DNA of 61,223 nt from a virus (IMGVR_UViG_3300028844_002929:1-61223); one strand, 5' to 3'; positions 27,584-55,429 are shown, numbered from the stretch's first letter. Translations and numbers: made by a program. The notes: generated by a model not told the origin, from the sequence alone.

Positions 27584-27591
27584 CAAATATA
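27584..27591 (-). promoter_or_regulatory. -7 promoter element
   Basis: TATATTTG 19 nt before ATG 27564. Confidence 0.6.
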
Positions 27592-28870: not shown

Positions 28871-28878
28871 CAAATATA
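28871..28878 (-). promoter_or_regulatory. -7 promoter element (leaderless geometry)
   Basis: TATATTTG 4 nt before ATG 28866. Confidence 0.65.
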
Positions 28879-33238: not shown

Positions 33239-33246
33239 CAAATATA
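33239..33246 (-). promoter_or_regulatory. -7 promoter element
   Basis: TATATTTG 21 nt before ATG 33217. Confidence 0.6.
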
Positions 33247-34380: not shown

Positions 34381-34388
34381 CAAATATA
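34381..34388 (-). promoter_or_regulatory. -7 promoter element (leaderless geometry)
   Basis: TATATTTG 4 nt before ATG 34376. Confidence 0.65.
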
Positions 34389-39854: not shown

Positions 39855-39862
39855 CAAATATA
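39855..39862 (-). promoter_or_regulatory. -7 promoter element of portal gene
   Basis: TATATTTG 22 nt before ATG 39832. Confidence 0.6.
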
Positions 39863-47396: not shown

Positions 47397-47404
47397 CAAA
47401 TATA
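47397..47404 (-). promoter_or_regulatory. -7 promoter element (leaderless geometry)
   Basis: TATATTTG 4 nt before ATG 47392. Confidence 0.65.
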
Positions 47405-48583: not shown

Positions 48584-51500
48584 TTCTTCAGCACTTTAAA
48601 TGGTGATTTCTTTTTGACCTTAATACGCCCGCCTTGCTTGTACCCTCGGATTTCTCCCGATCCTTGCTGAAGAGACTTCGGAACCTTAAGCTCAAACCAA
48701 GTGTTGCCATGCTCATCCGTTACAGGTTTGAACTCATATCCCAGCTTCTTGGCAACCTTGGGTAGGCGGTCATAACTCTTCATTACTGTTTTATGACTAT
48801 CGCTAACGCCTTCACCACGCAGTAATGCGTCGAGTTGCGATTGAAGGCTGCTCATGTGATTCTCTACAGCTGATACTCTTCCCTTTGCCTCTACACCTCT
48901 CCTCAAATTCTTGCTCAAAATCGCAGCTTGATCACTGAAATTAGCATAGTTGAACATTGGAGACTTATCTGGCCGACCCGAAAGGCTATGGAGTTTATCG
49001 ATATCATCCATCAAGTGCTTATAGAGGTAGTCCTTCTCCATCATCCAGTGGTAATCCTTAGATTCCTGAATAGATGCTTGATTCTGGGGTGGGGGAGTGT
49101 TCCCTGCAATAGGCATATGGAAAGGAATGTCATCTTGCGGGCTCTGTTTAGTTGTGCTTCTATACAGAGCAGCAAAATTATCTTCTACAGACGGTTCGCC
49201 CATAGGCCTGTCATACATCGTCGGAACATAATTCTCTATATACAAATCCACAACGTCTATTGGAGCCATCCGCATCCTATCCAATACAGTATGGGGCTCG
49301 AAGAACCTATTGTTAAACAGATAATTTGAGAAGCGCTCGGCGATTCTCTCCATTGCATCTATACCCCGGTCGTTCACAGCAGAGCCCCGATACTTAGTGT
49401 ATTCTTGGTAATCTGGATGCTCTAAGAAAGCCCCCGATAAATAATCTTCAGCTGGTAATTTTGTTACTACAAGTCTATCTTGAGTCGCAGGCCTCTGATC
49501 CGCTGCCCACTGAGCCTCCTGTACTATATTTTCGACAGCCGTATCCATCTGCCCTGAGCCCTTGAAATCCTCATACAAATTGGATAGTCGAACGTCACTA
49601 GAGAACGTTGCAAAGGTCTGATCCATACTGGCGTACATCTTCCCAGGGACACGACTTGCACTCGTTACATACTGATCTAGCCGACGATCGAATCGATGCC
49701 TAGCAGATTCGCTCATTGCACGCGTTACCCGACCATTTCGCCAGTGATCAGCGAACTTCATGAAGTTGTAACTATGTACAGATTTTTGCCTCGCCAGTGA
49801 TATCTCCCCATTGTATATTTTGTCAGCCGTATCTTCAGAAGAATAAATTAAATCATCAACATAATCAGGAAGCTTGCGAGCAAACTTCTCGGAGTAATCC
49901 TCCATTGAGTCAGTGCCAGTAAGGGCAGATTTACCCTGACTTACAAGAGGTGTCCTAAACAAGAGTTGCTGAGCGCCTTCTCCCAGAGCTTCTATCTGCT
50001 GGCCAAAAATAGTGGCCTCACCATTGTCAAATGGGGTTGCGGTGTTTTCGTACTGACCAAGAGGACTGTCCAAATAGTTCTGAGCGTGGTTAAGCTCCAT
50101 TTGAAGTGTCTCGAGGGCTTGTTGTTGAGTTTCAATATCCTGTTCTACGCGTCGGGGACTTCTAGTGTAGCCCTGAATAACAGCAGTAGTAATGCCAGTA
50201 GGAAAGCGGATAGCGTCATACCCAGAATTTTGACCTACGATTTGTGACAATAAGAACTCATCCTGGTTCTTCACAAAAGCCTTCTGTATTCTTTCGTCAA
50301 CAGGCCCTATCTGATCTTGTCCGAAGTCATCTATATCACCATAGATCTCACCAGTTCCAAACACCTCATCCATCTCTTGCTCCGTACCCTCCATCTCCTC
50401 GACTGCACGACTGAAGCCCTCTAAGGCATTATCATATTCTGATGCGATGTTAGCGTCTGTAAAAGTACCAGGAGGATTTATGTCGTTCTTCTCCAATGCG
50501 TCGATAATCTCACCTGAGAAAAGCTGCAAGTCGTTTGATATGCTTGCGCCCTTAAATTCTTTATCGTCTAACCACTCCAGTGTTTTTTGCCCCTCATCAT
50601 GGGCTTCAATTGCCGCCGCATATAGCTGATCAGACAATTTCCTATGCCTCCTGTCCAAGTCACTATATTCTGGGAATAGATTAGTCACCTTCTTTTGAGT
50701 GTCCATCCACCAATTGACATCATATAGGAAGGCATTATTCTCATCGATGACGCCGTCCTTCATTACCTCAGCAATCTGTTTTTTGACAGAGACACCAGAG
50801 GCCCCTGGGGCCAGATCTTCAACATCAAATCGATAAGAGCCTCCAATATTCTGGAATAGCTCGTGCGGGTTTCGAGCTTGAACCTTACCTACGGTTGGAT
50901 TTACAGTAGCAAACCTTCTGGTCAAAGTGTTGTAGGCTTCATCGGGAAAACTGTACGCGAAACGACGAGGCTCCCCAGGAGTCTGCGTGGCATCTAACTC
51001 CATTATGTTTGTCGGGAAGTCTGGGTTGTAATCGTAACTGTCTTGAATAAATCGACCCCTTTGAGCCACATCCGACTGCATTTCTCCGATGTACAAAGTT
51101 CTCGTTTGAGCCAGATTGCCCCCTCTAACAAACCCTCTGTAGTGACCTACTACATTAGGGGAGATGCTCCTCCAATGACCAGAGTCCTGACCAATGTAAC
51201 TACGACCTACAGGATTCTGAGGATTAGCAATAATAAGTTGAGTGCCAATATCATTGATCTCGGACCGTGGGCCCTGAAGATTACCGAACCCATAGTCAGA
51301 ATACGACTGAGTTTCGTCATGCACGAATCGATCACCTAAAACCTTAGCCGTTTCTTGTCGCACTGAATTCAAGTCATAGAACTCCTTACCCTTTTTACCT
51401 ATGACTGGATCCATATCCATCAAGGCATCCGTGAGTACGATCTTATCGAATTCAGACAGACCTCCTTTACTAAGGTACTGAGCCATCTGAGCCTTCGGTA

Positions 51501-53270: not shown

Positions 53271-53274
53271 AGTG

Positions 53275-53282
53275 TAAAGATA
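53275..53282 (-). promoter_or_regulatory. Variant -7 element (leaderless geometry)
   Basis: TATCTTTA 4 nt before ATG 53270. Confidence 0.45.
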
Positions 53283-54072
53283 AGAATCCTACTTAGACAA
53301 CAGAAGGCAGTAATAGTCCTTGGGAATAGGGCACAAGTACCGCGAATACACCAAATGTCTCACAGAATCCCAGGGTAATATTATTTTATACCCCCCATTC
53401 CTCTGCGTCTATAAGGTAAAGTTACACCAAAAAATTGACATTGTCAAATTACCCCCAGTATTACACATCACATGCACAATTCCCCTGTTTATCGACTGTC
53501 TCTCTACGCTAGTTTTCGACATTGTCTATAAATCTGCCCTTTTTTTTTCTGAGTACCCATAGTTATAGACGAACTGTAGATAAAGCACCTGGGGTTGAAA
53601 TAGCGAAGGAGGGGTTTTGGGGAAAATAAGAAACGGAGAACACACATCTGAAAAAAAATGGGTGAACATTAGAGATCGGGGATTATATATATGTATATGC
53701 GTTGGCGGCGGCGAACCGAAATGACTTTGCGGCGGTGGCTTTTGTGTTAGTATTTGTATTTGCGCAATTTTTCAGCGTTTTTTCCTGTTAGTATTAGCGT
53801 CTACCCCCCTGATTATCAGGCAATTAGGGGATCCCCCTGCCGGTGGCCCATTAACCTATTACTAATACCCGAATTCAATTGTCTATTATTTGTTTATGCT
53901 AATACTAACAACAACTATATAATATCTATTTGCCCCCCTGTTTTTCGGTTCATCAGTATTACACCATTTTTCTTTCGTCGATAACTTGTTGGTTGTCAGT
54001 GAGTTACACAAAAGGGGGTCATTTTATACGGCTGTATGTCGAATCTTCGCTTCATAGTCGAAAAGTTGTCTA
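53283..54072. other. Divergent non-coding region; candidate origin and/or genome terminus
   Basis: No credible ORF; AT-rich with C/G runs and palindromes; strand switch point. Confidence 0.55.
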
Positions 54073-54080
54073 TACATTTG
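54073..54080 (+). promoter_or_regulatory. First early promoter (-7 element)
   Basis: TACATTTG with TTCG about 20 nt upstream, at the AT-to-GC transition. Confidence 0.6.
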
Positions 54081-54084
54081 GCCC

Positions 54085-54712
54085 TGTCAAGCGACACGGG
54101 GTAACGACTCCTATATAGACCGCTCGACCTACGGCGACCACGCCGTTGATATAGTGTTTATTCAACCGACTACGGCCCCCCCGATATTACCTGACGGGGG
54201 CGACCACAGGACGAACACCAACCGACGAACCGTGCGGTGTGACTCTGAGGTAAGTGTAGGCCCCCGATTGTTCGTGGGGGTTTACGGTGAACCCTACCCA
54301 ACACGGGGCAACTAATAGAATAGACACGGAACCACAGACGCGCCCCTTTTGGGTTTTCGTTTGTGGGTAGGACGTTCACGGCCCCCTTATTACACGGGGT
54401 GTGCGGGCCTGCTGAAGTAACCCACTTACAGGGAGAAGCCGAATACGCGTGTTGACCGCGTTACGAACCTGCATATGTAGTGTGTGCGGGGGTAGGGCAT
54501 AATATGTAAGACGCAAGTACACGGATCGGTGAGCGATTAATGTTTGAGCGGCGTACCCTCACGCCCGCCATGACGACACGCGATGACACGCGATGTACAC
54601 GACTCGGAGCAGTTGTAAAGCGTGTGCGAATAATTGAGGGCGCGTAGATACGGATATGCACGACCTGTGCGGCGGTTCGACTCCCCCCTACGCACGACTC
54701 AATGGTGAGTCA
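54085..54712 (+). ncRNA. Candidate large structured RNA / long leader
   Basis: Dense helices with G-U pairs on + strand, long-range pairings, no credible ORF. Confidence 0.6.
54641..54695 (+). ncRNA. tRNA-like mini-domain (not a canonical tRNA)
   Basis: GCGTAG/CTACGC acceptor-like stem stacked on GGCGG-TTCGACT-CCCCC T arm; no D stem, no CCA. Confidence 0.55.
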
Positions 54713-54728
54713 GTAAAAACCCAATACA

Positions 54729-55178
54729 ATGTTGGTTCAACAACCAAAAATGATGCGAGTACAACTCGCCCAATACAAGTCTGACGGCACTCTTAAAGCA
54801 GAGTACAAGATGACCCAATCGATACGCAAGGCCCGCGACGAACAAGACCTCTTGTTCAAGACGGCAACGCATATCGAATCATGGGCGGGTGAACTCATGA
54901 AGATGAACGAGGTGTTCGGCGACAAGTTCCAGACCCCCAAGGGTAACAGGAAGCGTCTGCCCTGCTCGTTCTCACCCACGCAAAAGATTGCTATCCGCGT
55001 CTACTACGGCGACGATATGCAAGAAGAATGTGTGATGACCACCACGGACTATACGTCCTCTGCGGTATGCGAATACCGCCTCACCCTCAAGAAGTTGGCA
55101 AGCGGTGAAGGCAAGCAAGTTCTGCTGTCCTCGTTCAAGCTGACACATATGCTTGGACAACACATCAAGTTCTCATGA
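54729..55178 (+). CDS. First early hypothetical protein
   Basis: 149 aa, A-rich leader. Confidence 0.75.
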   Translation: MLVQQPKMMRVQLAQYKSDGTLKAEYKMTQSIRKARDEQDLLFKTATHIESWAGELMKMNEVFGDKFQTPKGNRKRLPCSFSPTQKIAIRVYYGDDMQEECVMTTTDYTSSAVCEYRLTLKKLASGEGKQVLLSSFKLTHMLGQHIKFS

Positions 55179-55429
55179 ACATCCACAACACCAAGGGAGG
55201 CCGCGCGACTACACACGCGTGGTCTTCCCCCTTCATGTCCAAGGCGGCACGAGTACAAGTCGTCGGTAAGATTTCACTTGCCGAGGCCCAAGACAAGACG
55301 CCACGATACAAGCGCAGGAAGAAGTGCGCACCACAACACGTCCTACCCAACGAAGTCAAACGATGGGCGAAGCACAAAGGTGTAGCGACCAGGACTAACG
55401 GACGCGGCGAACTCATCATCAAGCTGTAA
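55175..55429 (+). CDS. Basic hypothetical protein
   Basis: ATGA-coupled ORF. Confidence 0.7.
   Translation: MNIHNTKGGRATTHAWSSPFMSKAARVQVVGKISLAEAQDKTPRYKRRKKCAPQHVLPNEVKRWAKHKGVATRTNGRGELIIKL

Follow-up and report, generated by a model that had tools for sequence, protein, structure and literature searches.

A candidate large structured RNA with a tRNA-like module at the head of the early arm of a phage genome

What does a phage keep in the largest non-coding gap of its genome? The question is raised by the virus record IMGVR_UViG_3300028844_002929, a complete IMG/VR genome of 61,223 bp with terminal repeats, which was analysed over its whole length and is called the window in the following. 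Its late arm consists of minus-strand genes from about 7.5 kb to 53,270, and its early arm of plus-strand genes that begin at 54,729, continue past the record end and stop at about 7.3 kb. The gap between these arms (53271-54728, 1458 nt), the largest non-coding one of the genome, holds an RNA candidate of about 630 nt on the plus strand at 54085-54711, organized as a variable 5' domain, a conserved 3' core, a tRNA-like module and a terminal hairpin. A preliminary description, made from the sequence alone, had proposed an undescribed, large and structured phage RNA at this place. Indeed, the fold is kept in three lineages, with both-sided changes beyond those of controls, and we hold it to be highly probable that 54085-54711 contains a real, conserved RNA structure on the plus strand. 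The broader reading, according to which the RNA represents a new family of large structured phage RNAs and carries its own processing signal, is put at slightly less than an even chance.

The gap does not behave as coding DNA. No open reading frame (ORF) of more than 69 amino acids occurs in 53271-54728 on either strand under translation table 11, and no long frame appears there when TAG is read as Q or TGA as W (table 4), in agreement with the earlier claim that no credible ORF precedes 54729. The turn to GC-rich sequence that had also been pointed out is only partly informative: GC content does rise, from 0.39-0.44 immediately upstream to 0.55-0.57 over the RNA, but the coding early arm downstream also stands at 0.51-0.55, so that GC content has no power to set the RNA apart from this arm.

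Homologues of the RNA and conservation of its fold

Homologues come from three divergent lineages, i.e., the window, L002 (IMG/VR record G022) and L231, completed by three near-identical variants (L234, L233 and L236). L002 lies in an IMG/VR contig reached via the ORF downstream of the RNA, whose product shares 60% protein identity with its counterpart; its non-coding stretch matches the window in invariant blocks of up to 25 nt with variable segments between them. Scanning metagenomes with an 18-mer taken from the longest invariant block returned six stretches, four of which are true relatives. The third divergent lineage, L231, has an RNA of about 720 nt owing to a large insertion in one hairpin, and L234 is 97% identical to the window. 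Two metagenome copies are of the G022 type, L233 with four differences and L230 without any, and a 5'-only fragment of the same type (L236) was found in an IMG/VR scan with a gapped 20-base pattern, whose matches were G022 and L236. The identical copy, L230, is carried by a metagenome contig of 100,208 bp, as compared with 61 kb for the window genome; the extra length may mean that this contig is a concatemer, comes from a larger relative or holds an integrated copy.

The RNA family is rare in the collections scanned, where three lineages represent it. With the whole gap as query, BLAST found no match among 50,697 phage records; with the RNA as query, it matched G022 alone out of 22 related IMG/VR records. 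A covariance model (R1) run against 50 related records produced two partial matches, both to the tRNA-like part. In IMG/VR, a 14-mer found at least 118 stretches, the only related one among the matches listed being G022; a 16-mer retrieved one true relative out of seven, and a 19-base pattern G022 alone. A 17-mer scan of species genomes returned six stretches, none of them related. No relatives were found for the protein encoded on the other side of the gap, and the more distant TerL relatives of the phage share neither its early genes nor the RNA.

The evidence for structure rests on covariation. Helices were derived by eye and with RNAalifold, and were then counted on MAFFT alignments that had not been fitted to the structure. 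The first alignment (A5) covers the 3' half with five rows, four of them distinct, and 60 pairs in 12 helices; the second (A6) covers helices P1, P2 and P2a with six rows, five of them distinct, and 19 pairs. Over both alignments, 20 of the 79 tested pairs changed on both sides yet stayed paired. In A5, 94.4% of the cells are standard pairs and both-sided changes affect nine of the 60 pairs, a number reached by none of 500 shuffles (2.5 ± 1.4), with 0-3 such changes when the partners are slid by one to three columns. For A6, the corresponding values are 96.5% of cells paired and both-sided changes at 11 of 19 pairs (shuffles 5.9 ± 1.5, none of 500 reaching the observed count; slid partners 0-3). 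The covariation that the preliminary description had expected among homologues of a genuine RNA is thus present. On a model-fitted alignment of the 3' half, which leans towards the structure by construction, 98.3% of the cells are paired and 13 pairs changed on both sides.

The conserved 3' core is composed of the following elements.

54370-54640, plus strand: conserved 3' core, a multi-helix junction, supported by pair counts on the alignments, with model coordinates checked
54373-78 / 54400-05, with an inner part 54382-85 / 54396-99, plus strand: P1, with an invariant 10-nt loop; five of six outer pairs changed on both sides
54425-30 / 54505-10, plus strand: P2, long-range helix; four of six pairs changed on both sides
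54438-40 / 54496-98, plus strand: P2a; two of three pairs changed on both sides
54445-61, plus strand: P3, from per-lineage folds
54468-90, plus strand: P4, from per-lineage folds
54511-14 / 54620-23, plus strand: Pa
54517-23 / 54591-98, plus strand: P5; three of seven pairs changed on both sides
54529-31 / 54587-89, plus strand: Pc; two of three pairs changed on both sides
54533-35 / 54579-81, plus strand: Pd
54541-44 / 54575-78, plus strand: P6
54548-68, plus strand: P7; both-sided changes in three of seven pairs, seen only on the model-fitted alignment
54599-54616, plus strand: P8
54556-54561 (loop of P7) / 54635-54640, plus strand: candidate pseudoknot of six pairs, paired in all four distinct sequences

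The two strands of P2 are separated by about 80 nt in the window and by about 140 nt in L231; this helix is built from three different sequences in the three lineages. Between the helices of the core run long invariant unpaired stretches. The candidate pseudoknot, whose 3' strand ends one base before the tRNA-like module, is compatible with the data but not proven; its variation amounts to a one-sided C-G to U-G change in L231 on the model-fitted alignment, with no both-sided change.

The 5' domain is the more variable half, and its features are less secure than those of the 3' half.

54085-54369, plus strand: 5' domain, folded separately for each lineage, with patchy conservation
54085-54096, plus strand: 5'-terminal hairpin
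54131-54146, 54175-54201, 54256-54285 and 54332-54366, plus strand: hairpins of the 5' domain, with model coordinates checked
about 54287-54331, plus strand: conserved single-stranded block

The MAFFT columns of this domain are too inconsistent for a formal pair count, and its per-lineage folds give a similar series of hairpins made of different sequences. The columns are likewise inconsistent over P3, P4 and the two-tier hairpin 54332-54366, hence the separate folding of these parts between conserved anchors; each of these anchor-bounded blocks adopts the same hairpin layout in the different lineages, again with different sequences. In all, more than 20 helices are kept by the homologues from the three divergent lineages.

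The close variant L234 provides a further check. It differs from the window by 16 substitutions in 469 compared positions, 224 of which are paired in the model. Model pairs are hit by six of these changes; pairing is preserved in four cases, a U-U mismatch becomes A-U in one, an existing mismatch is affected in another, and no pair is broken. In addition, nine of the 116 pairs of the window model are G-U on the plus strand, a feature that the preliminary description had remarked in its own helices, and would be A-C on the opposite one.

The same description had drawn several individual helices, which fared unequally. Those at 54131-54146, 54256-54285, 54332-54366 and 54468-54490 are present, and at each of these places the relatives also have a hairpin, made of another sequence. 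Conversely, an outer helix 54288-93/54373-78 is not kept in the relatives, as its 3' strand belongs to the covarying P1; a long-range pair 54120/54544 is not kept either, its 3' strand sitting in the covarying P7; and a pseudoknot 54187/54248 has, by eye, no counterpart in the aligned relatives. Two other pairings considered in the course of the modelling were dropped by eye, 54409-12 / 54429-32 because it clashes with the covarying P2 and 54417-21 / 54460-64 because it is broken in L234.

Some results count against the structure. Folding energy is ordinary for the whole RNA (z = -0.47; 7 of 20 shuffles fold as well) and for the 3' core (z = +1.14; 179 of 200 shuffles fold as well), whereas the preliminary description had expected folding better than shuffled controls and had taken the lack of it as evidence against an RNA. 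The window model, when enforced, reaches -197.6 kcal/mol as compared with -222.6 kcal/mol for free folding, so it is not the minimum-energy fold. The 5' domain is the sole part that stands out in minimum free energy (z = -2.16), the opposite strand of the RNA having a z of -1.43. Moreover, with three independent lineages, each counted change stands for one or two events, and the structure was derived from the same sequences as those later used for counting. Folding energy thus weighs against the claim of a structure, but it is outweighed by covariation.

The tRNA-like module and its free-standing counterparts

How does the RNA end? Its 3' end carries a compact tRNA-like module, overlooked by the preliminary description, followed by a terminal hairpin.

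54641-54695, plus strand: D-armless tRNA-like module of 55 nt, from a geometry scan and the alignment
54642-47 / 54688-93, plus strand: acceptor-like stem, 6 bp, invariant
10 nt following the 5' acceptor strand, plus strand: linker with a conserved GG
54658-61 / 54667-70, plus strand: short hairpin
54671-75 / 54683-87, plus strand: T arm with a 5-bp stem and a canonical 7-nt T loop at 54676-82
54696-54711, plus strand: terminal hairpin, 6 bp with a 4-nt loop, one base after the module, with no U run after it

The T arm runs straight into the 3' acceptor strand, and the acceptor-like stem closes a local domain of 52 nt in which 23-27 nt with one short hairpin separate the 5' acceptor strand from the T arm. 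A scan for the geometry of a T arm joined to an acceptor stem found a single site in the window, 54642-54693, as compared with 0.22 matches per shuffled window. Between L002 and L231 the T stem shows covariation, being fully paired in both. Besides, the loop of the terminal hairpin contains the AUG of a mini-ORF of four codons (54702-54716), which is kept at four to six codons in the three lineages, a conservation probably explained by that of the hairpin itself.

In the tRNA-like domain of tmRNA, the T arm is stacked on an acceptor-like stem and the D region is reduced but retains a conserved GG. The module shares these traits, namely the canonical T loop, the T arm set on an acceptor-like stem and the GG in a reduced D region. 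It differs from tmRNA in that its acceptor stem is local and does not join the two ends of the RNA, and no tag reading frame is present; it differs from a canonical tRNA in having no D arm, no normal anticodon arm and no CCA. ARAGORN detected no tRNA or tmRNA genes in the window, nor in L002, L231 and two free-standing modules described below (L243 and L244). By comparison, the related phages G007 (C1:53200-53600) and G012 (C1:44407-44923) have, by scan, two ordinary tRNA genes each, whereas the window has none.

The closest match of shape is to mascRNA-menRNA (RF01684), whose model aligns in full length, below its cut-off of 42.5 bits, with L231 (25.6 bits) and with the free-standing modules of G005 (24.6 bits) and G002 (21.4 bits). 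As this model also rings on ordinary tRNAs, such a match speaks for shape and not for kinship. In MALAT1 and NEAT1, long non-coding RNAs with a small tRNA-like structure, an adjacent triple helix protects the 3' end; the t-elements of plant mitochondria are also comparable. The present RNA resembles MALAT1 and NEAT1 in placing such a structure after a long non-coding RNA, the candidate pseudoknot ending one base before it. The likeness is one of shape, since those are vertebrate nuclear RNAs, and the protective element would here be a pseudoknot instead of a triple helix. In an excerpt of the work on MALAT1, RNase P cleavage at the tRNA-like structure is what makes the mature 3' end (PMC8457004).

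Modules of the same design also stand alone in related phages. In G002 and G005, the two phages in which model R1 matched this part of the RNA, they immediately follow an ORF, and the one of G002 immediately precedes the next promoter.

G002:C1:17577-17626: L243, free-standing module of 50 nt
G005:C1:48580-48626: L244, free-standing module of 47 nt
G014:C1:18681-18724: L246, free-standing module of 44 nt

Since those of G002 and G005 lie right after ORFs, the module is suggested to mark transcript ends, and in this phage group the free-standing mini tRNA-like elements may serve as signals for transcript ends or for processing.

Early promoter, possible processing and the leader alternative

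Where would the transcript begin, and is the RNA cut from it? A promoter was predicted directly upstream of the RNA, as the preliminary description had stated, and its -7 box was found again in L002 and L231. The motif TAnnTTTG is one that we take to be the -7 box of Bacteroidota promoters of the -33/-7 type.

54057-54080, plus strand: early promoter, composed of a conserved upstream block and the -7 box TACATTTG at 54073-54080
27584-27591, 28871-28878, 33239-33246, 34381-34388, 39855-39862 and 47397-47404, minus strand: late -7 boxes, by motif match

The TACATTTG box is the sole plus-strand TAnnTTTG from 51004 to the end of the window, so far as this stretch goes, and the early arm appears to have one promoter. 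The combined pattern of upstream block and box occurs once in the window (0.02 expected), both of its parts being kept in L002 and L231, and TAnnTTTG as such is enriched in the window, with 47 copies as compared with 31.7 ± 5.5 in shuffles. Transcription is predicted to start near 54086-54090. The same variant of the -7 box stands 4-22 nt 5' of the start codons of six late genes on the minus strand, and the late mRNAs would therefore be leaderless or nearly so. By contrast, some 650-670 nt without a gene follow the early promoter in a genome otherwise almost free of leaders; given how near the late boxes are to their start codons, an early leader of about 650 nt is exceptional in this genome.

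These elements can be arranged in a processing scheme. The host RNA polymerase would transcribe the RNA from the only promoter of the early arm, the box at 54073-54080, so that this RNA would be the first one made after injection and would be physically joined to the early mRNA; the conserved Bacteroidota-type box directly upstream suggests that it would be among the first transcripts on infection. Host RNase P would then cut just 5' of the acceptor-like stem, at about 54641/54642, and the 3' tRNA-processing nuclease (RNase Z) just after this stem, at about 54694-54695. These cuts would yield three products: a free RNA of about 555 nt with its last six bases buried in the pseudoknot with the P7 loop, a mini tRNA-like RNA, and an early mRNA beginning with a protective 5' hairpin, as hairpins at this place protect against decay that depends on the 5' end. 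By analogy with MALAT1, processing of the RNA by RNase P and RNase Z at the module is plausible, its probability falling just short of one half, and a role in end formation would also suit the free-standing modules that follow ORFs in G002 and G005. Speculatively, the freed RNA could form a compact particle, perhaps a self-assembling one, that would act in trans in host takeover by binding or sequestering a host component; the many invariant unpaired runs around the multi-helix junction are the reason for leaning towards such a trans-acting particle.

Several observations tell against this scheme. In the window, the T stem contains a C-C mismatch, leaving four of five positions paired, and the acceptor stem has six pairs with no CCA after it. 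Covariation gives no support to the acceptor-like stem, which never varies, to the terminal hairpin, identical in all lineages, or to five of the six pseudoknot pairs, which never vary either. The window and L002 modules have no match to the mascRNA-menRNA model at E ≤ 10, and this model also matches, below its cut-off, in 14 of 14 control genomes, on ordinary tRNAs; nine inspected control matches consisted of four tRNA 3' parts, two whole tRNAs, two chance matches and one mini module. Finally, no RNA reads over the candidate were found: in the two metatranscriptome runs that contain any of the window (5-6% of the sampled words), the contigs cover only 55221-55400, outside the RNA, and so carry no information on it.

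The main rival reading is that the RNA is never cut out and stays on the early mRNA as a cis-acting leader that controls it, either by making the RNA polymerase resistant to termination or by setting the stability or translation of the early operon, in which case the module and the terminal hairpin would be protein- or ribosome-binding parts. This reading has a known parallel in the put element of phage HK022, which has about 70 nt and two stem-loops and makes RNA polymerase resistant to termination. Like put, the present RNA is structured, lies directly downstream of an early promoter and heads a long operon; it is, however, about nine times larger, carries a tRNA-like module and has no Rfam match. 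The RNA lies after the only early promoter and before the first early ORF, which suits a leader, as do the absence of a terminator-like U run after the last hairpin and the tightly conserved spacing of module, hairpin and ORF. Nevertheless, with 630-720 nt and more than 20 helices the RNA is larger by far than comparable leader elements are known to be, and the modules of the same design stand after and not before ORFs in G002 and G005, which fits end formation better. An uncut leader is therefore a possibility of some weight, but a rather unlikely one.

Relation to known RNAs and significance for the phage group

Is the RNA already known under another name? Searched with Rfam, the whole window at gathering scores and 53271-54800 at E ≤ 10 gave no match to the RNA, nor did L231 and L002; the earlier statement that no tmRNA, RNase P or group I/II intron is present holds, with no such Rfam match at E ≤ 10 and nothing from ARAGORN. 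Full-text literature searches turned up no account of a phage RNA like this one. Within the limits of Rfam 15 and of these searches, it is an undescribed family. In the part consulted of a catalogue of 10,006 viral RNA candidates, the motifs have at most 151 nt (PMC10690425), and a sub-piece of the RNA might be listed among them.

The nearest known RNAs in general character are GOLLD and ROOL, presumably RF01998 and RF03087 in Rfam, elaborately folded RNAs that assemble into multimeric cages and usually lie next to tRNAs or are joined to them. According to a portion of PMC12286853, both are large RNAs of unknown function encoded by phages and prophages, often near tRNA islands, and GOLLD, first seen in lake and marine metagenomes, has a conserved 3' and a variable 5' region. 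The RNA considered here resembles them in exceeding 500 nt (about 630 nt, and about 720 nt in L231), in its many helices, in being phage-encoded and in its tRNA association, the module standing at its 3' end. Size, phage origin and tRNA association are traits of the GOLLD/ROOL kind, not proof of kinship. It differs from them in heading an early operon behind a promoter and in containing a reduced tRNA-like module where GOLLD and ROOL have neighbouring full tRNAs; it comes from three lineages only and has no similarity to either covariance model. Could it still be a very divergent GOLLD or ROOL? The shared size, phage origin, 3'-conserved and 5'-variable layout and linked tRNA-like element would allow it, as would the marine source of the RNA-bearing phage, given by the labels of the sequencing runs. 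The absence of any match to either model at E ≤ 10 in the window, L002 and L231 makes this improbable. The RNA is best regarded as a new family of the GOLLD/ROOL kind and a member of neither.

A function at the DNA level, such as a replication origin or a packaging site in a divergent control region, with hairpins of single-stranded DNA or binding sites, is less probable still. The gap is the largest non-coding one and separates divergent arms, and the closest genome relative (G001, about 90% nucleotide identity) has a contig that ends on both sides of the region, at window positions 50207 and 56486, some 6.3 kb including the RNA being missing; strain variation, or an assembly interrupted near the control region, may account for this. 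Against a DNA element, the compensatory changes preserve pairing for just one of the two strands, G-U pairs being A-C on the opposite one; a canonical T loop and a tRNA-like shape would have no meaning outside RNA; the conserved promoter points straight into the region; and the covariation of P2 across about 80 nt is not expected of a DNA site. Least credible of all, and already disfavoured, is a neutral spacer whose helices would be those of any GC-rich sequence. Ordinary folding energy and the small number of lineages speak for it; invariant blocks of up to 25 nt beside a flanking protein only 60% identical, both-sided changes far above the shuffled and slid controls, and the intact pairs of L234 speak against it.

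The surroundings of the RNA add further landmarks. The terminase of the window shares 41-48% identity with its counterparts in Flavobacterium and Cellulophaga podophages and in an uncultured phage. Although the ORF list places the beginning of the first early ORF at 54729, the start shared by its relatives is an ATG at 54750, where a protein N-terminus conserved in three lineages begins.

54750-55178, plus strand: first early ORF, with a product 60% identical to that of its relative and without PHROG match

Two more conserved non-coding blocks stand in the gap, at 53393-53466 and 53649-53819, with 81% and 78% identity to G022, respectively. The first looks like a leftward promoter of the late arm, of the -33/-7 type on the minus strand, and for the second, where a GC-rich run lies beside an AT-rich one, an origin and a further small RNA are both conceivable.

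Large bacterial and phage RNAs with intricate folds are few, and a function has been assigned to almost none of them. The clear setting of the present candidate (one promoter, first position in the early operon, a defined 3' module) makes it easy to test, and its general importance is uncertain because the family is rare, with three lineages. In its fullest form, the proposal would be that of a third "ornate" phage RNA beside GOLLD and ROOL, and the first with ends formed as in MALAT1, in which a mini tRNA would recruit host RNase P and an RNA of about 555 nt would lock its 3' end in a pseudoknot and form a particle acting on the host in the first minutes, while the mini tRNA found elsewhere in the phage group would be a general transcript-end signal replacing a terminator; taken as a whole, this picture is doubtful. 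To our knowledge, tRNA-like punctuation that releases a non-coding RNA has so far been documented for vertebrate MALAT1 and NEAT1 and for organelle transcripts. If it held for the free-standing modules too, these would represent an unrecognised class of transcript-end signals in Bacteroidota phages.

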